Shown here: positions 5,918 to 53,896 of the stretch, piece after piece | Numbering within the stretch: position 1 is the stretch's first letter | Layout of the letters: each line of letters opens with the position of its first letter | IMG/VR virus record: IMGVR_UViG_3300029288_006769 | Location: 186,367-250,366 of that record | Length of the DNA stretch: 64,000 nucleotides | Strand: one strand, 5' to 3' | From: a virus | Notes under the pieces: model-generated | What the model was told of the DNA's origin: nothing | The model's input: the letters and a program-made list of their open reading frames with translations, nothing else | The model's database searches: none | Position numbers and translations under genes: made by a program

Positions 5918-6592
5918 CTAAACTAAAGTAGCAGCTGTAAATGACATTAAAGACCCGTAATAAAGAATATTATTAAGTGTATGATTTATTTTGTAATTGT
6001 TTAAGACTAAGTTGTTCAATAATGCTTCATTAGCAACTTGAGCATCTGTAAAGAAAAATAAAGTCGTGCCTATAGATGTAAATATTGCAACAGCAATATT
6101 GCCGTCTAAAAATAAAACATAGGATCTCCACACACTACAAAGTATGACAAGTAGATAGATAGGGACCAGTATCCCCATTATACCTTTTATTTTCCCTAAA
6201 AACAACATTGTGAAGATATATAAACCAAAAGCATATACTGCAAGCCCTATGCATATAGAATAACTTGAAAATGTCGGCTCGTGTATAAAGAAATTTATTG
6301 AGTTCAATATATGACATGCAAGAAAAGCAATTAGTCCAGCCATTAAATTTTTAATTATCAATAAATCTCCAATTAGAGCACAAAGTAGCATGAAATAAAT
6401 AAGAAAAGTAAAAAGCGAAATTTCTTCTGATAGCGATATAATTAGCAAGGGTATTAGAATTAGAATAGTCCGCCATAATTTTTGTTTTGAAATATCCCAG
6501 TCTTCGTATGGTTTGTAGACATAGTCAAGAATCGAGAACACGACGACAAGTGCAGCATTAACACCAAGCAAATACCATTGTATGTAAGTCAT
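5918..6592 (-). CDS. polytopic membrane protein (possibly YhhN-like)
   Basis: 224 aa with about 7 hydrophobic helices. Confidence 0.5.
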   Translation of the reverse strand: MTYIQWYLLGVNAALVVVFSILDYVYKPYEDWDISKQKLWRTILILIPLLIISLSEEISLFTFLIYFMLLCALIGDLLIIKNLMAGLIAFLACHILNSINFFIHEPTFSSYSICIGLAVYAFGLYIFTMLFLGKIKGIMGILVPIYLLVILCSVWRSYVLFLDGNIAVAIFTSIGTTLFFFTDAQVANEALLNNLVLNNYKINHTLNNILYYGSLMSFTAATLV

Positions 6593-6603
6593 TAAAAATT
6601 CTC

Positions 6604-7119
6604 TTATGGATATATTCTGTGAGTTCCTAAATATCTGGGCGTATAACCTTCATTTGCAATTTCAGACATTTTTTCATCGATGTCCTGAAGGTCTTTCTTG
6701 CTAAGTAAATCTGTAACATCAATATCACCAAAATATACTTTGAATTCTATTCCTAAGGAAGAATATTCATCGCCTCTGCTATCTATATATGGATCTGAAT
6801 AAGTATCTGTTATTTCAGCTTTAACAGGAACTTCAAATTCATCTTTTTCATTTTCTTTAAGATCATTTTTTTTCTTGTCAGTATAATAATCGATTACCCA
6901 ATCAGCTCCTTCACGAGAATATGGTTTTAAAGGCGAAACATCACAGGTCCCATCCTCATCTTCTTTTATATCAGCTACTTTTTTATCTTTCAAAAAAATA
7001 GCATTGTCTTTATAGACAAAAGGAATAACGACTTCGAAAATATCGTCATCATTTTTTCTTGATTTCATGTCTGTTGCAAGAATTTTGCAAATAGAACACA
7101 GTTCTGAATGTCTATGCAT
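6604..7119 (-). CDS. hypothetical acidic protein
   Basis: 171 aa, strongly Asp/Glu rich. Confidence 0.5.
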   Translation of the reverse strand: MHRHSELCSICKILATDMKSRKNDDDIFEVVIPFVYKDNAIFLKDKKVADIKEDEDGTCDVSPLKPYSREGADWVIDYYTDKKKNDLKENEKDEFEVPVKAEITDTYSDPYIDSRGDEYSSLGIEFKVYFGDIDVTDLLSKKDLQDIDEKMSEIANEGYTPRYLGTHRIYP

Positions 7120-7121
7120 AA

Positions 7122-7292
7122 TTAGTCCATCCTATACAGTTCTTTATCTAGTTCAGCAAAGTCGACAGGTTTGCCTGCAATGCCTTTAGCAAGATTTTTC
7201 GCTGATTCATCTATCATTTGTAGCGTATTTGCCGAAATCTGATCGAGCGCCTGTATTGTAGACTTCACATCGGTTTTTCTGTTATCTTTCAT
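7122..7292 (-). CDS. small ORF translationally coupled to the upstream protease gene
   Basis: 56-aa ORF MKDNRKTDVKSTIQALDQ...; its ATG overlaps the protease stop (ATGA); not in the track because it is under 60 aa. Confidence 0.35.
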   Translation of the reverse strand: MKDNRKTDVKSTIQALDQISANTLQMIDESAKNLAKGIAGKPVDFAELDKELYRMD

Positions 7293-8296
7293 AATGTACA
7301 ACCAAAAGCATTGAAAACATTATTTATTCTATTTACTATAGTAGTTGTGTCACTACCAGCAAATAAAAGACCTACAAGATAAGTACCCGAACAAACTGCT
7401 GAACCACTATCTCCGGGTTGACTAAACGAACCTTCTGAAGATGTTATTGATATTTGATCACTAAAAATAGCGGTCTTGTTTGTCCCATAACTTACTTGTG
7501 TTGTTACATCAATCTGATCAACTACACCTTTTGTGTATCCTGTTGTTCTACCCTGCTTATGAACTTCCATTCCTAATTCTATCTCTTTAACTCCAATAAT
7601 AGGGCCGATTCCTCTTATTTCTTGCAATACATCAGCTTCATTTAATGGCTTTGCAAGAGCAGCATCGACTAAATTTGTTGTTGCTTCTAAACTATAAGCT
7701 TTCAAACGGCTTTTTCTACCTAGAATAAATGAAAGGAAATTAAGAAAACCTGCACTACCTGTAGCAATAGGACAGTCAGTTCCTTGTAAACCATTTTCAA
7801 TAAAATTTACAGGTACAAATTCACTAAGTGTTCCAATTTGGTCTTTTTCAGTTCCTTTATCATAAGGCCCTGGTTGCAGTATTGCATCCCCTACTTTACC
7901 ATCATTACTATTTGCAAGTACATGATTGTTAGAAAGAATCATTAATTGTCCGTTTTTTCGAACAACACACCCAAGCGTGCCAGCTGTAATAGCATAATGT
8001 CCAATACTATCACCACCTAATGCTGGTCTCTGTTTTGTTGTATTGCTTTGAGCTTTTATGATTCCTGTTTGTACAACATCTGTGGGTATACCATTTATCT
8101 GCTCTGGGATAAGATCTTTTTCGGATAGTGATTCTTTGGTCTTCTTTTGTTCGACTGAACAAATAATAGAAAGTTTGTCGGTCTTTTTACCTTTAGAAGT
8201 CTTATAACCAATACCTAGACTTACAACATTGGCTTTCGACAATAAAACTTTTTTCGAAGCAACATCAAATCCTTTTCGAACATCATTGATATGCAT
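7289..8296 (-). CDS. trypsin-like (S1 family) serine protease
   Basis: GDSGSAV catalytic-Ser motif and an NHV His region; start moved to Met10 because of the RBS AAAGGAGACTATATG. Confidence 0.7.
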   Translation of the reverse strand: MHINDVRKGFDVASKKVLLSKANVVSLGIGYKTSKGKKTDKLSIICSVEQKKTKESLSEKDLIPEQINGIPTDVVQTGIIKAQSNTTKQRPALGGDSIGHYAITAGTLGCVVRKNGQLMILSNNHVLANSNDGKVGDAILQPGPYDKGTEKDQIGTLSEFVPVNFIENGLQGTDCPIATGSAGFLNFLSFILGRKSRLKAYSLEATTNLVDAALAKPLNEADVLQEIRGIGPIIGVKEIELGMEVHKQGRTTGYTKGVVDQIDVTTQVSYGTNKTAIFSDQISITSSEGSFSQPGDSGSAVCSGTYLVGLLFAGSDTTTIVNRINNVFNAFGCTL

Positions 8297-8340
8297 ATAG
8301 TCTCCTTTTTGAATGCATAACAAGATGTCTTATAAAAACT

Positions 8341-9129
8341 TTAAACAATCCTATCTGCTGAACCTAGTTTTGTGACATTATCGTCTACAATTCCTTGTAG
8401 AACAGAATCTGTAACTAAATTTCCAGATGATTGCACTGAGGCATTTATTGCTGCAAAGGATGTCATAGCTAAAGTATATTCATCTGGGTTCAACAAAGCT
8501 TTTGCTGCCCAAGATCTTCTGTCACTGTTATTGAGAGCGGCTACATAAGCGTCTCGTGTTGTCAAATATGTATTTACCAAATTTGTCACCATAGTCAACG
8601 TATTAGAACTTATTGATGCTATAATATTGCTTTCGGATGCAGCTGAATCTGCAATTGTAATATTTTGTCCTATGACAAATATTGAGCCGTCAGTGACAGC
8701 AACATCTTTTTGATTAGCATTAGCGTTGCCTGTAAGAGTAGAAACAGGTACAGCTTCTGAAAAAATTGAATTAGCTGCAATTATGATAGCAGAACGAATT
8801 CTTTTTCGTATTTCTGTTGATTCATAAATTTTGCTTATTGATATCAGTGTGTCTGTACCTACAACATTGTTATCAACATCATTTTTGCTTTCATTCAACA
8901 GATAATAAGCAGCTTCGCCACTCACACCTTCATTATAGACAACAAAATCAACATACTTGCTATTGACTACTGGTTTTATGCTTTTTTCTGAGTTGCCTGT
9001 CTCATAGACAAGCATAGAATAATGATTTATAGTCGTAGGTATATTGTTGTCATTTCTTTTACTACGAAAAGGACTTCCAACAAAAGTATAAAATGCAGTG
9101 ATCTCAGCAATAATTTCATTTTTTGTCAT
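8341..9129 (-). CDS. Ser/Thr/Asn/Ala-rich hypothetical protein (possible surface or structural protein)
   Basis: start at the internal Met (MTKNEII) with RBS GAAGGAATAACATTTATG; low-complexity beta-rich composition. Confidence 0.5.
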   Translation of the reverse strand: MTKNEIIAEITAFYTFVGSPFRSKRNDNNIPTTINHYSMLVYETGNSEKSIKPVVNSKYVDFVVYNEGVSGEAAYYLLNESKNDVDNNVVGTDTLISISKIYESTEIRKRIRSAIIIAANSIFSEAVPVSTLTGNANANQKDVAVTDGSIFVIGQNITIADSAASESNIIASISSNTLTMVTNLVNTYLTTRDAYVAALNNSDRRSWAAKALLNPDEYTLAMTSFAAINASVQSSGNLVTDSVLQGIVDDNVTKLGSADRIV

Positions 9130-9169
9130 AAATGTTATTCCTTCGAAGATGTGCGTAGAAAATGGGGAG

Positions 9170-9187
9170 TATAAAAACAATACAAAT
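9170..9187 (-). promoter_or_regulatory. second copy of the conserved 18-nt upstream motif
   Basis: identical TATAAAAACAATACAAAT at the same distance from a start codon as the 3092-3109 copy; direct repeats TAACTATTTCAT x2 lie just upstream at 9211-9243. Confidence 0.3.
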
Positions 9188-9253
9188 ATCAAAGCTAGAT
9201 AACTATTTCATAAGTTGTCTAACTATTTCATGCTATTGATGCAAGATGATGTC

Positions 9254-10117
9254 TTATAATTTTTTATTTATGAATTTATCTAAGGCAAGAACTAAAGAAT
9301 ACGTGAACATTGCACCAGCAATGCCAAACCATGGCGTGATTTCTACTGGATTATTAAAAATCCACGCCCATCTATTTGCCGTATAAGATAGAAAAACAGA
9401 ACTATGATGCGGGTTTCCTGCAGCATCAAATGTAAGATAAATCCACTGAGATGCCCATGAAAAGCCAGGGATTTTTGTAATCCATGTTACAGCAGCCCAA
9501 TCCCATAAAGCTGCAAACAAAACTATAAACAAGAAAAGTTTCAAATAATGTCGAGTGTCCCAAGTGTTCCATGCATAAAAAAATAAAGGTATTGATACCA
9601 AAGCAAATTGTAATGCAATAGATCTCCCTGCAACACTAGTAAAATAAAGAAAAAACATTGTAACAGCTATATGAAATATTTGAAATGCCCATTTTGACCA
9701 TTCAGAAGAAGTAAATCGGTTATGTAATAGTCTAAATATTGTATAGAAAAATGCCCCACAAACTGGATAAAACAGCCAGTCTTCTAAAGTCAAAATCCAT
9801 TCAGGCCCAACAACAGACCAAGGATGAAAAAGCCAGCCAGGAAATGTCGTATCAAATTTCTCCATATAGATTCCCCAGAACCAACCGCATATTGAGCCGA
9901 TGATCATATGAGGAATAAAAACTTTGAAATTCATTTTTGAACGTTTTGAGAACAACAGATAAGTAGTAATAAACGTAATGATAGCAACAATAATTGGATA
10001 ACCAAGAGCGACAATTTTTTGAAAATTATTTTTAGGTTCTCCATCTTTTAAAACGGAATCAAGAGCACCTTGTTCTTTTAACTCGTCATAACGCTGTTTG
10101 TTTGATTTTGAATTCAT
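9254..10117 (-). CDS. Trp-rich polytopic membrane protein
   Basis: 287 aa with many hydrophobic helices; ATGA overlap with the upstream gene. Confidence 0.55.
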   Translation of the reverse strand: MNSKSNKQRYDELKEQGALDSVLKDGEPKNNFQKIVALGYPIIVAIITFITTYLLFSKRSKMNFKVFIPHMIIGSICGWFWGIYMEKFDTTFPGWLFHPWSVVGPEWILTLEDWLFYPVCGAFFYTIFRLLHNRFTSSEWSKWAFQIFHIAVTMFFLYFTSVAGRSIALQFALVSIPLFFYAWNTWDTRHYLKLFLFIVLFAALWDWAAVTWITKIPGFSWASQWIYLTFDAAGNPHHSSVFLSYTANRWAWIFNNPVEITPWFGIAGAMFTYSLVLALDKFINKKL

Positions 10118-13346: not shown

Positions 13347-13385
13347 CTCAACAGAAGAGCTGTGTGGCTCCATAAAGGAATTTAA

Positions 13386-13781
13386 TGGAGGCGACGGGAG
13401 TCGAACCCGTGTCCAGAAAACGATCCATGACAATCACTACATGCTTATCTCAGTTTTAATACTCCAACACACTAACTGGGCAAACAATGCTATTGGAGTG
13501 CAAGAACGTAACTTCGGTCCCCTTCTCTCTCTTGCGATTCGGATTCCCTATTCGTGTCTGTAAAAGATTCGGCTCACACGACTGCACCAGAATCTTTTGT
13601 TGCTTTTAATTAAGCAACGACTGAATTCGCAACACCCAAGCGAACATTGTTCGCAAAAGCGAGAGCGAATTTTACTGCATAATTGTTGGCAATTATGTTT
13701 TTCCGGATTTTTACGAGGCCATCCAGACCCTCGGCATGCGACTGGCAATTCACATAATCTGTCGAAAACCGATACGCCCCC
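13386..13781 (-). ncRNA. ssrA: tmRNA (SsrA), one-piece
   Basis: minus-strand 5' end GGGGGCGTATCGGTTTTCGACAG...GCATGCCGAGGG..TGGCCTCGTAAAAA.CCG.AAAAA matches the conserved tmRNA 5' domain; 3' end GGGTTCGACTCCCGTCGCCTCCA forms the T-arm and acceptor; the 7-bp acceptor stem has a G3:U70 Ala identity pair; resume codon GCC at nt 92; tag ORF ends at a TAA inside the TTGCTTAATTAAAAGCAA hairpin; CCA is not encoded. Confidence 0.85.
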
Positions 13782-21030: not shown

Positions 21031-22299
21031 TTAAGTTGCAAAAGTTGCAATAAGAGGAGAAATGTATTGATTATCTAACAAATAATCTTCTTGCTTCATA
21101 GAATATAGACTTACTTTAATATTTGGTATTGTCTTAAAATAATCAAACATTAAAGAAGAGGTCTTGTTCTCCACAAGCTTAAAATCCCCATATACCATAG
21201 GTATTTTTCTATAACTCAAACCTTCAATCTTAATTAATTTTGCAGACTTTATATCGCGATCTTCTTCAAATCCACAAACATGACACTTAAACATTCTTTC
21301 ACTTAAAGTAAATTTTGTTTTTGAACTACATAAAGGACATATTTGCGTTGAAGGAAAGTAACGATCCACAAAAATTGTCTTAGATGTTTTTCTTAATTCA
21401 TCTAATATTCGTCCAATTATTGTAGAACTTATTTTTCTTCCATACAAACGTTGCCATCCTACTAAATTATCGTTTTGAATGCAAATAAAATCAAAATTGT
21501 TCTTTAAGTAACTAGTTATCTTGTTTGAGACATCTTCTTTTTGATTGTTTATTTTTAAATATTCTTTTCTGATTTTCATCCTGGACTTAAACTTGTTTTT
21601 AGAATTTCTAATTTGTCTAGAAATCTTTTTTTGTATTAATCTTATTTTATTGTTTTTGAAAGTAGTATCAATTTTAATTCCATTTGAAAAATTTAAAATA
21701 TTCTTAATACCTAAATCACATCCAATTGTTTGATTCGATATAGATCGTTCTTGTTTTTGTTGAAAAGTAGTAATATGAAAAAAGAAACTAAAAGGTTTTC
21801 TTATAAGTCTTATACTAGAAATTTCTGAATTTTCTGGTATTTGCTTTAATCCTCTTACTTTAAAAACTTTTTTATAATTTTCAATTTTTATCGAATTAGA
21901 TTTTACATACATATTACCTGGAATAGAATTTATTTCGCTTTTAAATTTTAATTTTCCTACTTTTTCGTTTTTTTTCTTTTTTGTTGCAAGTCCTTTTATA
22001 TTATAAATTATTTTTTGATAAATCTTTGCTCTCATAGAACTACTCAAATGTCTTAAATCTTTCTCTTCAAACTCTCTTTCTTTATTCATTACAGAAACTT
22101 TTTTTAACTTGCAATCAACAGAAAAAATATTTTTTTGAGATAAACAAAAATTATACCACCATTTTGCTTCAAGAAACAATCTGTTAAGAAATTCCAATTT
22201 GTCTTTTGATAATCTTGACATATCGATTTTTACTTCATAAATTTTACAAAGTTGTTTTTTTCTCTTTTCTTTTGTTGATTGACTTTGGATAAAAGACAT
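21031..22299 (-). CDS. tnpB: TnpB-like RuvC nuclease (IS200/IS605 OrfB family)
   Basis: N-terminal OrfB HTH-like helix (WWYNFCL); RuvC-I GCDLGIKN; RuvC-II region IQNDNL (Asp where Glu is usual); zinc finger CPLC..CHVC; RuvC-III DRDIKSAKLI. Confidence 0.8.
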   Translation of the reverse strand: MSFIQSQSTKEKRKKQLCKIYEVKIDMSRLSKDKLEFLNRLFLEAKWWYNFCLSQKNIFSVDCKLKKVSVMNKEREFEEKDLRHLSSSMRAKIYQKIIYNIKGLATKKKKNEKVGKLKFKSEINSIPGNMYVKSNSIKIENYKKVFKVRGLKQIPENSEISSIRLIRKPFSFFFHITTFQQKQERSISNQTIGCDLGIKNILNFSNGIKIDTTFKNNKIRLIQKKISRQIRNSKNKFKSRMKIRKEYLKINNQKEDVSNKITSYLKNNFDFICIQNDNLVGWQRLYGRKISSTIIGRILDELRKTSKTIFVDRYFPSTQICPLCSSKTKFTLSERMFKCHVCGFEEDRDIKSAKLIKIEGLSYRKIPMVYGDFKLVENKTSSLMFDYFKTIPNIKVSLYSMKQEDYLLDNQYISPLIATFAT

Positions 22300-40746: not shown

Positions 40747-42303
40747 TTAATTTTTTATAGCGTCAACAAAATATTTTGGGAAAAATTTGCTATTTTGTTT
40801 TAAGAAAAACTTGAACTGGCTATCCATTATGTAGATTGTACAAAAATCTTTGTCGTGTCTGACTCCACGTCCAGCAGCTTGTACAAGAGTAAGTGCTGTT
40901 TTCCAATTATACCATTCAGGATCAATTTCCATACGCTGCTTTATTTGTTTGTCGCCCAAAAACATGAATGGGAGTTTTACAATTACAACAAATCTTGCAA
41001 GATCATCTTTTAAATCAATACCTTCGGTCATTGATGGGGTTACAAGAACTTTTGGTTCGTCAGATAACATAAAATTGTTCAATGCTGCTGTTCTTGTAGA
41101 ACTATCATGAAGAATTATGCGTTCTCTGAATTTCAACCCAATATTTTCTTTGATATAGTTGGCAATTCGATATGTATGGCAATGTAAAAGTCCTTTTTCG
41201 GTGTCATGAAAATCTAAAATTTTCTCAATGTCTTGAACTACTTTGGGCAAACTTTCTTCAATATTGTTTTTTCCTAAATTCCCTGATCTTGTAAGAATTA
41301 TTGGTCTTATATCCGGAGAAAACGTCGATGGAACTTGAATGAATTTTGTTTTAGAAACTTCAAGATCTAAATTCCTGCAAAAACTTTCTTTATCTAAAAT
41401 TGTCGCCGACATGAATAATTTCTTTTCAGCATTTTTGAAAAGCAATCTTTGAGCAAAAAAACCGACAGTCAAAGGTTTGAATATAATTGTTTTTGAACGT
41501 AATTTTTCATTAGTTGTTATATCGAAAATCCATTCAACTTTTGTATAACTCTCAAGAAAAACTTTAACTCTTTCTTCTTGACTAGCAAGTCCTTCGAGTT
41601 CTTTTTGAAGATCTGAAATTATTTCTATATCAAGAAATTTATTCTTCAGTTTTTCTGTTACTTCTTTTTTTCGTTCCTTGATTATAGGGACTAGCATTCG
41701 AAGCCACTCTATATATTCATCAAGTTTTTCATAAATTGGTATTTTAGAAGTTACACCCAATTTTGAAAGATAAAGAGATGAAAAACTAAATTCGACAAAA
41801 GACATACATTCATCATCAAGACTATGAGCTTCGTCACATATCAAAAGCTTTCTTAAAGAAAATGTCCCAGTATAATTCGTAATACATAGAAAATATTTAT
41901 AGTTCATCAATGCAACATAAGATTCTACAGCCTGTTGCTTAGCAATTTCATAATAACATTCTGGTTTTATTGGACATTGTTTTGTAGAACAATAAGAATC
42001 TTCACAAGTAAAATTTGCATACAACTTACAAGGATAATTATTACGTCCTTTTAAAACACAAACTCTACCTGAACTATAATCTTTTACATATTGATCCTGA
42101 AGAATTTTTTGTGAAGTCAATAAAAAAGCAGATTTGTAATAAAGACCAAGGCTAATCGCAATGGCACTTTTGCCTGAACCTGTAGGACTTTCCAAAACAA
42201 CATTCTCTATTTCATCTGAATCAAGAGATTGTTGAATATCAAGAATGGTTTCTTTTTGATATGGTCTGAAAGTTTTATGAGGGAAAAAATCTAGAACGCT
42301 CAT
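40747..42303 (-). CDS. DinG/XPD-like Fe-S SF2 helicase
   Basis: Walker A ESPTGSGKS, DEAH box CDEAHSLDD, four-Cys Fe-S cluster insert. Confidence 0.8.
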   Translation of the reverse strand: MSVLDFFPHKTFRPYQKETILDIQQSLDSDEIENVVLESPTGSGKSAIAISLGLYYKSAFLLTSQKILQDQYVKDYSSGRVCVLKGRNNYPCKLYANFTCEDSYCSTKQCPIKPECYYEIAKQQAVESYVALMNYKYFLCITNYTGTFSLRKLLICDEAHSLDDECMSFVEFSFSSLYLSKLGVTSKIPIYEKLDEYIEWLRMLVPIIKERKKEVTEKLKNKFLDIEIISDLQKELEGLASQEERVKVFLESYTKVEWIFDITTNEKLRSKTIIFKPLTVGFFAQRLLFKNAEKKLFMSATILDKESFCRNLDLEVSKTKFIQVPSTFSPDIRPIILTRSGNLGKNNIEESLPKVVQDIEKILDFHDTEKGLLHCHTYRIANYIKENIGLKFRERIILHDSSTRTAALNNFMLSDEPKVLVTPSMTEGIDLKDDLARFVVIVKLPFMFLGDKQIKQRMEIDPEWYNWKTALTLVQAAGRGVRHDKDFCTIYIMDSQFKFFLKQNSKFFPKYFVDAIKN

Positions 42304-45249: not shown

Positions 45250-45997
45250 ATGTTTTCTTATATTGACAGAAAAAACAATCCTTTGTTCTCTGATTGAATT
45301 TGGGCTCTTTTAAAAAATCCTTTTTCGAAATTCTTTCGAGCATATTATTGACTTGCCTAAATAAAATCTCAAAATCTTCTTCAGTGCGTTGGGTGAACAA
45401 GATTTCACCATCGATCGGATATGCTAGTGCACCATGTATTGAATCAAGCGAATATTTATATAATTCCCTCACAAAAAAACTATAAAAAGTTAATTGTATA
45501 TTCTTGTCAATTTCTTTTTCTTTACTTTTTGATGTTTTCCAATCAAGACAGACAATCTCGTCATTCGCTAAAAGCATATCTATACGACCTGTAAGATGCA
45601 CATCGTCTAAAAAATGATTAATAAAAGGTATTTTACAATATTTCTCTATTTCAAGAATTTTAAAACTGCTCCAACGACTCTTCATTTTTTTGACGTTTTC
45701 TATTTGCAATCTTCCTTTTGCTATAGAATCTTCAAGTTCCTTTGAATTAGGAAAAGGTAGATTCTTTGCTTCGGTGCAAAAAGCTATAAACAATGAGGGC
45801 CATGCAGCAGAAATTTCGTCAAGACTCAGACCAAATTTGAAATGCAATTCAAGTGCTTTATGGAGTGTAGAACCAAAAGTCGTGAAAAGATATGCTTCAT
45901 CAGGTGTTCTCTCATCTAAAAACTGCCATTTATACATCTGAGAACATCTGAAAAAAGAAGATAAAGATGATGCAGAAACAGTTACTTGTGTTCTCAT
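45221..45997 (-). CDS. PD-(D/E)XK nuclease with C-terminal Cys cluster (Cas4/RecB-like)
   Basis: GRIDML...DWKTSK core and C-terminal CFFCQYKKTC. Confidence 0.6.
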   Translation of the reverse strand: MRTQVTVSASSLSSFFRCSQMYKWQFLDERTPDEAYLFTTFGSTLHKALELHFKFGLSLDEISAAWPSLFIAFCTEAKNLPFPNSKELEDSIAKGRLQIENVKKMKSRWSSFKILEIEKYCKIPFINHFLDDVHLTGRIDMLLANDEIVCLDWKTSKSKEKEIDKNIQLTFYSFFVRELYKYSLDSIHGALAYPIDGEILFTQRTEEDFEILFRQVNNMLERISKKDFLKEPKFNQRTKDCFFCQYKKTCAKNDDREL

Positions 45998-47283
45998 TTT
46001 ACCTCATTCAAAAGAAATTCAATTGTTTTTTCGTTCAAAGCAGCTGTCCGCATCAATTCGAATTGTTGTTTATTAGTTTTTAGTTCTTCCTTGATTTTTG
46101 TCTGACGATCAACATCATGTTTAAGCATACTTGAAATTTGCATTGCATAGGTAACAATTTCATCATCTGTCACCAATATCCCAAAATCTTTTGCAACCTG
46201 TTCGAGTACTAAAGCAGCTTTAATAGACTCTATAGAACGTTGTGTATAATGATCAAAGAAACCCTCTTTAGAAACTTTTTCTTTTGCAATCTGTTCTTCA
46301 GTTTTTCCAATGCGTTTTAAAAACGCATTCCATTCTTTTTCATTTTCTCGATCTATCATTACTTTGGGTATTGGTGTGATATTCGAATTATTGATAACAG
46401 ATAACAGCACTTGCTTTTTAAAAGTTTCTTTTGCATTATTCTCTTTCTCTTCAGCAAATTTAAGTCTTAAATTTTCTTCATACAATTTGATTGTGTCAAA
46501 CCCTTTTGATTTTGCAAATTGTTCATTATATTCAGGAATTATTTTGTCTTTGATTGCTTTAAGAGTAACAGTAAAAATAGCTTTTTTACCAGCTAGTGTT
46601 GTTTCTCTATAATTTGTCGGGAATGTTACAAATATTTGTCTTGTCTCTTCTTTCTTCATCCCAATGAGCTGATCTTCAAAATTGTCTATAAATTGTTTTT
46701 GTCCATTTATGATTTCATTTATTTTTATCTGATAACCTTTAGCAACACCACCCTTAAAAGGCGTTGCTTCACCTTCAAGTCTGCCTTCGAAATCGATTAC
46801 AGCAATATCAAAATTTTCTAATGATTCTTTTTCAGAATCAAGTATGATTTCGCTTTTCTTTACTTCCATTGTTATCTTATCTCTAAATTCATTTTCTGTC
46901 AGTATAGATTCGGGCTTTTCGATCTTGATTGCGTTTAGAACTGGTAAGCTGATCAAAGGTTTTATTTCAGCAACAAATTCGATAGTAAAAGATGATTTTT
47001 TCTTTAAATCACCAAAAAATTTAAAATCAGCAGAAGAAACAATATTGGGTTCTACATTCACAATGTCATGAAAAATTTGATCAACCATAGGTTTATAAAG
47101 TCGTTCAATTCTTAAACGACTTTCAGCAACATCCCGAGGAACATTTCCTTTTCTGAAACCTGGAATCTCTATATTACTTTTTACTTTGTCATAGCATTCT
47201 TTTTTTCTTGTTTCAACATCATCGGGGTCTAATGTCACAATGTATTTCACTGGTGCAGGCATTGCTTCTGTTTTAATGTTCAT
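45994..47283 (-). CDS. tig: trigger factor (ribosome-associated chaperone/PPIase) homolog
   Basis: ribosome-binding signature GFRKGNVP near residue 40, central FKBP-like PPIase region (GG..KG...I..I..G..FI..FE..L.G....ET....V.FP..Y....LAGK.A.F.V.L), 429 aa as in bacterial TF. Confidence 0.8.
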   Translation of the reverse strand: MNIKTEAMPAPVKYIVTLDPDDVETRKKECYDKVKSNIEIPGFRKGNVPRDVAESRLRIERLYKPMVDQIFHDIVNVEPNIVSSADFKFFGDLKKKSSFTIEFVAEIKPLISLPVLNAIKIEKPESILTENEFRDKITMEVKKSEIILDSEKESLENFDIAVIDFEGRLEGEATPFKGGVAKGYQIKINEIINGQKQFIDNFEDQLIGMKKEETRQIFVTFPTNYRETTLAGKKAIFTVTLKAIKDKIIPEYNEQFAKSKGFDTIKLYEENLRLKFAEEKENNAKETFKKQVLLSVINNSNITPIPKVMIDRENEKEWNAFLKRIGKTEEQIAKEKVSKEGFFDHYTQRSIESIKAALVLEQVAKDFGILVTDDEIVTYAMQISSMLKHDVDRQTKIKEELKTNKQQFELMRTAALNEKTIEFLLNEVK

Positions 47284-50658: not shown

Positions 50659-50994
50659 TTACGTAAGGTCTGTCACTCCATCGCCAAATAAAGCAGCTTG
50701 AGTGAATGTATCACCCTTGTCATCATGATAATATAAAATTGTCCCGTCAGGAAATTTATCCGTTTCTATAGGATCAATCCCTACAGCACAAGACTCGACA
50801 TCGAATTTGATAACCCAAGTCTTTAAAGAATCATCATGTTTTGAAACAGTAGTATGAACAAGTCCAACGGATTTACAAGAATCTATTCTCCCATTACTTG
50901 CAATATCTATAATTCTAAGTAATGCGGTGGAAATAATAGAAATCGCTTGTTTGTCAGAAATGTTTGAGGACTTTGAATCTTGGTTCTGATTCAT
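50659..50994 (-). CDS. hypothetical protein
   Basis: 111 aa. Confidence 0.4.
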   Translation of the reverse strand: MNQNQDSKSSNISDKQAISIISTALLRIIDIASNGRIDSCKSVGLVHTTVSKHDDSLKTWVIKFDVESCAVGIDPIETDKFPDGTILYYHDDKGDTFTQAALFGDGVTDLT

Positions 50995-53896
50995 AAATTT
51001 GCATTCGTTTCTTTGAATGACCAGTCAGATATCGTATTCTATCATAAAAATCAACTATTATGGCTTCTTTTTTTTCATTATTTTCAGCTGAAGGATAAGG
51101 TCTTAATGTTCTACCTACACGTTGCAATGACTTGATTAATGATTTGCCCCCACCTGCCATAATAGCAGAACCCAGAGCAGGTATGTCTACACCTTCGTCT
51201 GCCACAGTGTTATGACAAAGAATGCCTTGACCACTAAAAAAATTCTCGCTTTCTTCAACAGAGATGTCATAGACGACATCTCTGTCATAAACTTGCTCTT
51301 CAGTTCTTATGATAGGTAAAATATAGAATTGTCCTTCAATTTCATCTCTCAAATAAGATCTAGAACCCATTTTAACATGTCTACCAAGACCAAACAGATT
51401 GCCTACAACAGAAACTCTAAAAGCATAATTTCTCGTGATAATATCTTTTTGATTTCTTGGTTTTAAATCTGGTGGTACTACACTGTACTTAATTTTATTA
51501 AAACCATTTGCTAGTAGAATGCCTACAACACCATCTGTTAATTCTTTGCTTACAGAACCAAAAACAAATTGATGATCACCATCAAAACTTCCATCTGTTA
51601 AAAAATACCCATATAAAAAAGCCATTTGAATTTGTGTATTACTATTAAAAATATAGTTAGGTACTTTTTTTGTCAATGCTTTACCTATAACTCCTAAAAT
51701 ATCTCTAAATAACATAGAAATAAGTTGACCTCCGAAACAACATCCTCGTCCAGGAGTGACAACAACATCAAGAGATGGAAATAGCAACTTTAAATTTTTC
51801 ACCATTAAATCTACTGTATTTGCTTTTCTACTCTTTGCATTCTTATAAACAAAATGTTCATTAGGTTTTGCTGACAAAAAAAGCCTCCAAGAAGCATTAA
51901 CAGCTCCATCACCAATCAACATTCCACAGATTTCGCTTAGTTCTTTAGAATTATCTAAAAACAGGGGCAAAGAAAATTTTTTCCTACTTCTTCTCCAGTT
52001 GATTGTTGCACTTATTTTCTTATAATCTTTAAACAATAAAATTTTCTCAAAAGTAGTTCTGAATTTACCCTTATAAAATTTTACGTTCTCATTAAACCAC
52101 AAGACAAATGCTTTGTAATACAAAGACTTATTCTCTAATCTTTTCCCAATTTTATAATGAATTTTCTTGTCAAGAAGATTCATTAGATACTTATATTCAG
52201 ATTTTATTTTCCTAATATTTGCTTGTGTTAAATTCAGATTGATTTCTTTTTGATTTCGATCAAGCCAGATTTCAACCTTTCTGTTTTTTAATCTAGAAAA
52301 TTCTTTTACTAAATCAAATTGTTTAATTTTTTTTGAATTTAAGGGCAAATTTGTTGCTACAATAACAGTATTACCTTGTTTAGGCTCTACTTTTTTTTGC
52401 CTATTATCTTCTAATGTAATTAAAGAATGATTTGATGTTACACTTACACATCTTGTCGTTCCAACAGTTGTTCTAAGTATTGGCACATGTTTTTCGTGTC
52501 TAACTACATGAGTAATTTTCTTCCAACAAATTTTATTTTGCCAAAAAGATAATGTTTGAAATTCTGCTTCTATTTGAGTATTCAATGATGTCTCTACAAA
52601 TTCACCTATTCTTATCAAGCTTATTTTTTTGTTTTGATCTTTTATCCAAATAAATTCATCATAAGGCAAACTTGAGCCAACAAGTACCTGAAGTTGCTTT
52701 GTGCGCACTTTATTTAAAAGGTCTTTTCGCATCTCTCCATTAACTTCACCTTGTATAAAAGCAACAGAACCTACTCCCGCCTTGGCTAGCCTCTCACATA
52801 ATATGTCTCCATGTGGTAACCTGGTGACTGTAATCAACACAGACTTGCCTAACTCAAGTAATCGTAGAGTACTATCTATAATCATTTCATTACGAAGGTC
52901 ATTATTGACAATATACTCTTCATATATATTTCTGAAAGACTTTCTGACATATTTGTATTTTGGATGCTCATTAGGATCTAACATATAGATCCAAGGTTGA
53001 ACAAGATATCCTTTATCTATCAAGAAAGATGCACTTATATTGCAAATCTGTCTACCCGAATAAGCATCTAGAACTTTATCTATTGATTTATCACGGTATG
53101 GGGTCGCACTTAACGAATACCTAAAATATGCTGACTGCATTAATTGCATCATTTGAATATAGACAGGCGCAGTAGCGCGGTGACATTCATCACTTATTAC
53201 GACTTCAGCTTCTTGAACGACTTTTCTAATTTCATGTTTTCTTTCAAGAACATGTTTCGAAATTTTTTCTTTAAACATGTTTTCTTCATCAATAGCACTA
53301 TACTTCAAATCAAATGCACTATGTAATGTCTGAACTGTACATACATTGATTTGACGTATATCACAATATCCACCGCCTATTTTCCCGACTTTGATCTTGA
53401 ACATATTCTCAAATTCATCAGCTGTTTGTTCAAGCAAGTCAATAGAATAGACAATAAAAAGAGTTTTCAAATTAAGTTGAGCTACTATTGCTGCAGCAAT
53501 TACTGTTTTTCCACCACCAGTAGCTACTTTTATGACGCCTCGTTCAGCTTTTATTGCACTATGTACAACTTCTTCTTGATAATCTCTTAACTTCTTTGCG
53601 TGCATTTGTAAGGGATCACCAATAGACGGAATAATACGAGTATCAAGTACATCGAAAGAAAAATGACATTCTGATAAAATTCTATCAAGGGTAGAGTAGA
53701 GCCCGGTAGGATAGCGTAATCTCTCACGTTCAAATAATGGAATTTCGAGTTCAAAAGTTTCTTTTCTGAAATTTGAATACTCTTCTCGACTATAAGACAT
53801 TTCTGATTCAATACGTCGAATCAGTTCTGTATTCAGTTTAACATTGGGTTTAAGATGGGTCCATGTATTGTCAATAACAATTTCAAAATCAGCCAT
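50954..53896 (-). CDS. UvsW-like SF2 DNA helicase interrupted by an intein
   Basis: Walker A VATGGGKT, DECH box, motif VI QRVGRTLR; motif V is split as VLVGS / TVADEGVDIP by a 488-aa insert; extein about 492 aa. Confidence 0.8.
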   Translation of the reverse strand: MADFEIVIDNTWTHLKPNVKLNTELIRRIESEMSYSREEYSNFRKETFELEIPLFERERLRYPTGLYSTLDRILSECHFSFDVLDTRIIPSIGDPLQMHAKKLRDYQEEVVHSAIKAERGVIKVATGGGKTVIAAAIVAQLNLKTLFIVYSIDLLEQTADEFENMFKIKVGKIGGGYCDIRQINVCTVQTLHSAFDLKYSAIDEENMFKEKISKHVLERKHEIRKVVQEAEVVISDECHRATAPVYIQMMQLMQSAYFRYSLSATPYRDKSIDKVLDAYSGRQICNISASFLIDKGYLVQPWIYMLDPNEHPKYKYVRKSFRNIYEEYIVNNDLRNEMIIDSTLRLLELGKSVLITVTRLPHGDILCERLAKAGVGSVAFIQGEVNGEMRKDLLNKVRTKQLQVLVGSSLPYDEFIWIKDQNKKISLIRIGEFVETSLNTQIEAEFQTLSFWQNKICWKKITHVVRHEKHVPILRTTVGTTRCVSVTSNHSLITLEDNRQKKVEPKQGNTVIVATNLPLNSKKIKQFDLVKEFSRLKNRKVEIWLDRNQKEINLNLTQANIRKIKSEYKYLMNLLDKKIHYKIGKRLENKSLYYKAFVLWFNENVKFYKGKFRTTFEKILLFKDYKKISATINWRRSRKKFSLPLFLDNSKELSEICGMLIGDGAVNASWRLFLSAKPNEHFVYKNAKSRKANTVDLMVKNLKLLFPSLDVVVTPGRGCCFGGQLISMLFRDILGVIGKALTKKVPNYIFNSNTQIQMAFLYGYFLTDGSFDGDHQFVFGSVSKELTDGVVGILLANGFNKIKYSVVPPDLKPRNQKDIITRNYAFRVSVVGNLFGLGRHVKMGSRSYLRDEIEGQFYILPIIRTEEQVYDRDVVYDISVEESENFFSGQGILCHNTVADEGVDIPALGSAIMAGGGKSLIKSLQRVGRTLRPYPSAENNEKKEAIIVDFYDRIRYLTGHSKKRMQIYESEPRFKVLKHF
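51209..52672 (-). mobile_element. intein with LAGLIDADG homing endonuclease domain, within the helicase gene
   Basis: begins SLPYDEFIWI (block A), block B VTSNHSL, LAGLIDADG motifs ICGMLIGDGAV and LYGYFLTDGSF, ends ILCHN followed by Thr+1; coordinates approximate to a few nt. Confidence 0.7.

Follow-up and report, generated by a model that had tools for sequence, protein, structure and literature searches.

A predicted LAGLIDADG intein in motif V of an XPB/UvsW-like helicase gene of a large phage

It is well established that LAGLIDADG inteins can reside in the ATPase motifs of helicases involved in replication and repair, with phage proteins among the examples (PMC4760082, PMC5050341). Some helicase genes accommodate inteins at more than one site: in the replication helicases DnaB of mycobacteria and MCM of haloarchaea, independent insertions occupy several ATPase-motif sites (PMC4760082, PMC6195587, PMC10643990). 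Here, we analyze an insert in a helicase gene of a virus, within a stretch of 64,000 nucleotides that comprises positions 186,367 to 250,366 of the IMG/VR record IMGVR_UViG_3300029288_006769 (hereinafter, the window, to which all coordinates refer unless another genome is named). The gene encodes a superfamily 2 (SF2) helicase related to XPB and UvsW, and the insert is, very probably, a class-1 LAGLIDADG intein that occupies an in-frame position in motif V, between Ser408 and Thr897, splices itself out of the precursor and homes. In different orthologues of this phage helicase, motifs II, III and V are each found occupied by inteins. This resembles the situation in DnaB and MCM, although the latter two belong to different helicase superfamilies (SF4 and AAA+, respectively).

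The closest described intein, by both sequence and structure, is PI-PkoII, the Pol-2 intein of Thermococcus kodakarensis, with a phmmer match (E 1.8e-9) to the second LAGLIDADG region and block F. In both inteins, the Hint domain is split by a LAGLIDADG endonuclease, with an extra region in between. However, the two are only about 18% identical, and PI-PkoII resides in a family B DNA polymerase of an archaeon rather than in a phage SF2 helicase. The helicase itself has the same SF2 core, consisting of the ResIII and Helicase_C domains, as T4 UvsW (2oca) and archaeal XPB/Rad25 (6p4f, 2fwr), but these solved proteins are intein-free and only distantly related to the extein. No description of an intein site in SF2 motif V, in UvsW or in Hef was found in the searchable literature, which does not include InBase, and we do not claim that the site is new.

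Anatomy of the precursor and predicted fold of the insert

The precursor gene and its parts, in the order of translation, are the following.

50954..53896, minus strand: the whole precursor gene, an SF2 (XPB/UvsW-like) helicase with an in-frame intein; 980 amino acids (aa) plus stop in an uninterrupted frame (list of open reading frames (ORFs) and Pfam)
52673..53896, minus strand: N-extein, aa 1-408; aligns with intein-free orthologues and with XPBII
53504-53524, minus strand: motif I of the N-extein, ATGGGKT
53180-53191, minus strand: motif II of the N-extein, DECH
53099-53113, minus strand: motif III of the N-extein, SAT
52673-52687, minus strand: N-terminal half of motif V, VLVGS, at the end of the N-extein
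51209..52672, minus strand: putative intein of 488 aa, Ser1 to Asn488, precursor aa 409-896 (alignment with 492-aa orthologues, break in the DNA alignment with the related contig L005, intein profiles, AlphaFold model)
52637..52672, minus strand: intein block A, SLPYDEFIWIKD, with the predicted Ser1 nucleophile; S1, L2 and E6 are invariant in 14 inteins at the same site (TIGR01445)
52415..52447, minus strand: intein block B, VSVTSNHSLIT (T79, H82); T79, N81, H82 and S83 are invariant in the 14 inteins
51899..51940, minus strand: LAGLIDADG motif 1, LSEICGMLIGDGAV, insert aa 245-258, acidic residue D255; helix 243-255 followed by a beta-strand in the model
51584..51625, minus strand: LAGLIDADG motif 2, MAFLYGYFLTDGSF, insert aa 350-363, acidic residue D360 (LAGLIDADG_3); helix 346-360 in the model
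51209..51277, minus strand: intein blocks F and G, VVYDISVEESENFFSGQGILCHN (D469, H487, N488); conserved in the 14 inteins (TIGR01443)
50954..51208, minus strand: C-extein, aa 897-980 plus stop, starting with the predicted Thr+1 nucleophile (Helicase_C at 891-932; aligns with orthologues)
51179-51208, minus strand: C-terminal half of motif V, TVADEGVDIP, at the start of the C-extein
51101-51124, minus strand: motif VI of the C-extein, QRVGRTLR

A preceding sequence-only reading of this DNA had proposed an insert of 488 aa that starts with SLPYDEF, ends with CHN followed by Thr, and contains a block B TxxH signature along with two LAGLIDADG motifs. All these elements are present: the insert is an open part of the continuous 980-aa frame, its C-terminus is GILCHN, the TxxH signature is T79-S-N-H82, and both LAGLIDADG motifs were recovered, as were blocks A, B, F and G, with curated hidden Markov models and in the structure model. 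The coordinates given in that reading, 50954-53896, correspond to the host gene and so cover all of it rather than the insert alone. Removal of the insert would yield a product of 492 aa, with the predicted ligated junction QVLVGS-TVADEGVDIPALGSAIMAGGGK. The guanine and cytosine fraction is lower in the insert than in the exteins (0.292 vs 0.354), which we count in favor of an intein. A group I intron with an in-frame ORF was rejected because Hint blocks are found at both ends of the insert and the reading frame is continuous.

Profile searches detect both the intein and its LAGLIDADG domain, with matches of the insert to intein models that are well beyond chance. The Pfam Intein_splicing profile matches aa 423-896 of the precursor (E 2e-14; 54.1 bits against a cut-off of 35.8), and LAGLIDADG_3 matches aa 757-823 (E 4.9e-6), also above its cut-off. 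Within the insert, the NCBIfam models intein_Nterm (TIGR01445; aa 2-86) and intein_Cterm (TIGR01443; aa 467-488) score 25.1 and 26.2 bits, against cut-offs of 24.5 and 15.6, respectively. The helicase domains flank these matches, with ResIII at precursor aa 101-268 and Helicase_C resuming only at aa 891-932.

The structure of the insert was modeled with AlphaFold (AF2) from an alignment of the 14 inteins found at the same site, which gave a predicted local distance difference test score (pLDDT) of 85.8 and a predicted template modeling (pTM) score of 0.86, compared to a pLDDT of only 32 in a single-sequence run. A Foldseek comparison of this model with the PDB retrieves PI-PkoII (2cw7) as the best match (E 2.8e-27; template modeling score 0.67 across the entire chain). 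Further intein endonucleases, namely, the TliVMA and PhoVMA inteins, PI-SceI and PI-PfuI, make up the rest of the top matches, and mini-inteins and the free-standing LAGLIDADG enzymes I-Tsp061I and I-DmoI rank below them. In the model, the Hint domain is formed by two beta-rich segments, insert residues 1 to ~110 and ~446 to 488. The first of the two LAGLIDADG helix-plus-sheet units begins at 243-255 and the second at 346-360, with beta-hairpins after each helix. The mixed helical and beta region between residues ~118 and 240 is probably an extra DNA-contacting region of the kind present in archaeal inteins. Thus, the insert combines the features of a class-1 intein, namely, in-frame insertion, Ser1 and block A, TxxH, the block F Asp, and HN with Thr+1, along with a predicted Hint fold. 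It also has the two helices, each predicted to end in an acidic residue, that characterize the alpha-beta-beta-alpha-beta-beta-alpha pseudo-dimer of single-chain, two-motif LAGLIDADG endonucleases.

Given established intein biochemistry, the most probable course of events is four-step splicing of the standard class-1 type. The gene would be translated as a 980-aa precursor, from which the Hint domain (insert residues 1 to ~110 and ~446 to 488) would drive excision of the insert using oxygen nucleophiles only. An N-O acyl shift at Ser1 would be followed by trans-esterification to Thr+1 and by cyclization of Asn488, presumably aided by His487 and by T79, H82 and D469 of blocks B and F, and the reaction would be completed by an O-N shift. 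The reaction is expected to leave the helicase at 492 aa, its motif V restored as VLVGS-TVADEGVDIP, and to release the 488-aa endonuclease.

Motif V of the host helicase and its empty alleles

In SF2 helicases, motif V couples ATP hydrolysis to nucleic-acid binding. The insert splits this motif between Ser408 and Thr897. Among PDB sequences, archaeal XPBII is the closest to the extein (E 3.5e-26), and the spliced sequence VLVGSTVADEGVDIP aligns with VIVASTVFDEGVDVP of XPBII, that is, with SF2 motif V, upstream of motif VI (QRVGRTLR). The earlier proposal that splicing restores VLVGS-TVADEGVDIP as a canonical motif V therefore holds.

The assignment of the host gene can be made at the family level. 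By sequence comparison, the relationship with XPB/Rad25 is at the superfamily or subfamily level only: the NCBIfam XPB equivalog model (NF045503) scores 74.8 bits, far below the cut-off of 610, which places the extein outside that equivalog. The match to T4 UvsW (2oca) is limited to aa 232-448 (E 1.6e-11), and the UvsW_N domain (Pfam PF21241) has no match in the extein at E<=1. A homologue with 38% identity (P0056), however, scores 35.3 bits with UvsW_N, above the cut-off of 25.3. Because homologues at about this level of identity carry UvsW_N, the label 'UvsW-like' that was originally attached to the gene seems fair as a family-level description. The core of the extein is nonetheless closer to XPB/Rad25 than to T4 UvsW, and 'XPB/UvsW-like SF2 helicase' is the more accurate name. 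The extein belongs to PHROG 16, 'DNA helicase' (E 1.4e-80), and its relatives in cultured phages (30-35% identity) bear the annotation DNA helicase or UvsW.

Searching 5.8 billion proteins with the extein yielded 534 homologues at E<=1e-10. Exactly 492 aa, without the insert, is the length of 15 of the 35 best-scoring orthologues, including the closest one (P0001), which is 85% identical to the extein. In the multiple alignment, the 492-aa orthologues run without gaps across the junction, for example, VLVGS-S-VADEGVDIP in P0001. The residue that follows the junction varies among intein-free orthologues (S, V, T, C, A, I or Q). In contrast, it is always Ser or Thr in the intein-bearing alleles from which the intein was extracted, which fits a role as the +1 nucleophile.

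A 72.9-kb contig (L005), syntenic with the window, encodes the closest intein-free orthologue. In both, genes for a 978-aa protein, an epimerase, the helicase, a DUF4031 protein, a 295-aa protein and an IstB-like ATPase are followed by those for DnaB, trigger factor, a Cas4-like nuclease and primase, in this order. The DNA alignment of the two loci is collinear up to window position 52659 and resumes at 51206, so that the window contains about 1.46 kb of extra sequence exactly at the intein. The contig has an empty site: its sequence is ...GTACTTGTTGGATCT|AGTGTCGCTGATGAAGGCGTGGAC..., encoding VLVGS|SVADEG where the window has VLVGS[intein]TVADEG, and it can be aligned codon for codon with the spliced window gene, at 78% nucleotide identity overall. 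The empty allele that the sequence-only reading had suggested looking for among relatives thus exists in a syntenic genome, and the other two checks suggested there, an alignment with intein-free homologues and a search for intein blocks, were likewise positive.

These comparisons bear on two alternative views of the insert. Under the first, the insert would stay in the protein permanently, either as an accessory or insertion domain native to the helicase or as a Hint remnant that is dead, and the 980-aa form would be the mature, possibly non-functional protein. This appears highly improbable: the insert is missing from the 492-aa orthologues and splits motif V, all the residues predicted to catalyze splicing are present and invariant across the family, and the modeled fold of the entire insert matches bona fide inteins. 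The native insertion domain was accordingly rejected. Under the second, splicing would be conditional on DNA, redox state or temperature and would serve as a post-translational switch that delays activation of the helicase during infection. Conditional splicing is known for the RadA intein. It has also been reported for the DnaB intein (PMC6195587), and by analogy a switch could be imagined here given that the insertion lies within a catalytic motif, so that the precursor should be inactive. Nothing at the locus supports such a switch, though, and the combination of Ser1 and Thr+1 excludes the disulfide or redox traps of cysteine inteins; furthermore, the intein-free orthologues show that the switch would be dispensable. 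We therefore find this possibility improbable.

Related inteins, mobility and additional insertion sites

An exhaustive phmmer search with the intein against 1.84 billion representative sequences produced 398 matches at E<=1e-3. The best match (P0121; E 9e-181) is a helicase orthologue of 1326 aa with two inteins, one in motif II (DE|C) and the other in motif V. In a pattern scan of the best 150 of the 398 matches, 26 were flagged as having a motif V context, and the intein could be extracted from 23 of these. All 23 start with Ser1 (SLP/SLH/SVHP..E), occupy the same position in SF2 motif V and are followed by Ser or Thr at +1, and all except P0123, which ends with KN, end with HN. The consensus of the site is ...(S/T)|S(L/V)(P/H)xxE ... 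HN|(S/T)xx(D/E)EGxD. The same-site inteins, which come from metagenomic phage-type XPB/UvsW-like helicases (P0121-P0144) and from Hef proteins (P0133, P0139 and others), show homology from end to end, with identities of 24-59%, or 24-28% if P0121 is set aside. The 14 aligned inteins all have S1, L2, E6, T79, N81, H82, S83, V467, D469 and N488, and H487 is conserved in at least 90% of them. The acidic column of LAGLIDADG motif 1 is D or E in 14 of 14, D360 and G361 of motif 2 are at least 90% conserved, and the acidic positions of both motifs are kept as D or E.

Homologous Ser1 LAGLIDADG inteins occur at the equivalent motif V position in archaeal Hef nuclease/helicases (P0133, P0137, P0139, P0147 and P0170), in the context …T|SVHPxE…CLHN|S(I/V)GEEGLDIP, where the match to the Hef helicase profile breaks at profile positions 433-434. 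The Hef profile NF010337 is matched above the cut-off by P0133 and P0139 (up to 871 bits vs 610) and below it by P0137, P0147 and P0170. The insertion point is identical to that in the phage proteins, although Hef represents a different SF2 family. The window intein is one member of a diverse family, whose Ser1 inteins reside at this site in motif V of phage XPB/UvsW-like helicases and archaeal Hef. It is a tentative possibility that these motif V Ser1 inteins form one old, uncatalogued lineage that moved between phage helicases and Hef via the conserved motif V sequence.

Homing would follow the usual route: upon co-infection with an intein-free relative, the endonuclease would cut the empty motif V allele, and recombinational repair would copy the intein gene into the cut allele. 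A competing explanation is that the intein splices but that its endonuclease is inactive or lacks a target, in which case the element would be a fixed, vertically inherited passenger. Several observations point in that direction. Identity to the nearest known copy of the intein is no higher than 59%, and neither IMG/VR, nor the deposited phage genomes, nor a word-indexed search of 5.8 billion proteins yielded a near-identical one. Specifically, the word-indexed search with the intein returned nothing at E<=1e-3, and its use as an IMG/VR query turned up no relative. Among 50,697 deposited phage genomes, megablast with the gene gave no match, and tblastn with the intein gave only weak partial matches to inteins of Stx-phage replication proteins. 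No tract of raised identity indicative of co-conversion surrounds the junction in the comparison of the window with the empty L005 allele, and so there is no sign of recent homing between these two lineages. Finally, between the window and P0121, the intein is more diverged (59% identity) than the exteins (74.5%). Current or recent mobility of the intein is thus undocumented.

On the other side, both catalytic acids of the LAGLIDADG motifs are kept, and the patchy presence and absence of inteins among close orthologues fits ongoing gain and loss. Furthermore, no other long segment is as well conserved between the two closest copies as the endonuclease core: in the comparison with P0121, this core is 67.6% identical, against 52.6% for the N-terminal part of the Hint domain, with 66.7% for the short C-terminal part, which suggests continued selection on the endonuclease. 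On balance, we consider a fixed passenger unlikely, and a splicing and homing intein remains by far the most probable identity of the insert.

The motif V site is one of several in this helicase. Inteins in motif II (DE|C...SN|C) were identified in the orthologues P0002, P0017 (a 140-aa mini-intein), P0025, P0033 and P0034, and an insert in P0047 maps to the motif II region; P0007 has an intein in motif III (FSL|C...HN|SAT). Some orthologues combine sites: motifs II and III in L003 (helicase at 6001-9603 of that contig), II and V in P0121, and all three in P0124, the latter being the maximum occupancy, with three inteins in one protein. Thus, the closest orthologues show nearly every occupancy state, the patchy pattern that is expected of mobile inteins. 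A homologue from Bacillus phage G (L007, NC_023719.1 152904-155536), whose match fell into two pieces, was considered as another candidate for a motif V intein and rejected, with the gene being split into gp221, gp222 and gp223.

The related genomes also differ in the intein content of a second helicase. The DinG/XPD-like helicase of the window (40747-42303, minus strand) is intein-free. Its orthologue in L005 (20070-21479) is 86% identical over aa 1-375 and diverges after 'GLIH', where the precomputed Pfam annotation of the insert includes PT-HINT, Intein_splicing and Phage_endo_I. The predicted DinG intein is present only in L005 and the motif V intein only in the window, so that the intein contents of these related genomes are reciprocal.

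Two IMG/VR contigs from the same sample, L003 and L004 (3300048599_000815 and _000816; 211 kb and 195 kb), both end inside the helicase gene. These ends may represent an assembly break caused by variation in intein presence and absence within the population.

Genomic neighborhood and implications

The genes around the helicase encode a DnaB-like helicase, an IstB/DnaC-like ATPase, a primase, a Cas4-like nuclease, a RecA homologue and the DinG-like helicase. Further ORFs were labeled SbcC-like, SbcD-like and RuvC-like by reading of their sequences, with an additional weak AAA_23 match for SbcC. All ORFs of at least 150 aa in the window are on one strand, and related contigs reach 192-466 kb. 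These neighbors assign the helicase to a replication/recombination module in a large phage genome, and from this neighborhood we infer that the helicase would function in recombination and could be essential. A complete trigger-factor homologue (Trigger_N, FKBP_C and Trigger_C domains; 45994-47283, minus strand) is located between the DnaB-like helicase and the Cas4-like nuclease and is kept in the same place in L005.

Elsewhere in the window, this apparently large phage genome carries a full-length transfer-messenger RNA gene (13383-13781, minus strand; Rfam RF00023, 147 bits against a gathering score of 47), for which ARAGORN predicts the tag peptide ANNYAVKFALAFANNVRLGVANSVVA. A TnpB-like ORF (21031-22299, minus strand), with OrfB_IS605 and a Cas12f1-like TNB domain, represents a second type of mobile-element gene. 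A protein with SPFH/Band 7 and flotillin domains is encoded at 613-2085 on the minus strand, an observation made in a phage-like genome.

The window intein represents a familiar kind of selfish element and is in itself ordinary, with some mild interest in its family context; it leaves the current understanding of inteins unchanged. The gene is best annotated as an intein-containing helicase precursor, with a predicted mature product of 492 aa, rather than as a 980-aa helicase. To intein biology, the locus contributes an insertion site in SF2 motif V for which empty alleles exist in nature. Its splice junction, Ser1/Thr+1, is free of cysteine, and the same helicase has sister alleles at motifs II and III. 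Together, these make a compact natural system for the study of homing and of intein gain and loss, and possibly for the development of cysteine-free splicing tools. Should the motif V inteins indeed form one old lineage, then, with the motif II and III sites, this phage helicase family would be a three-site intein hotspot, suited to tests of the interplay between neighboring inteins and of homing across helicase families.

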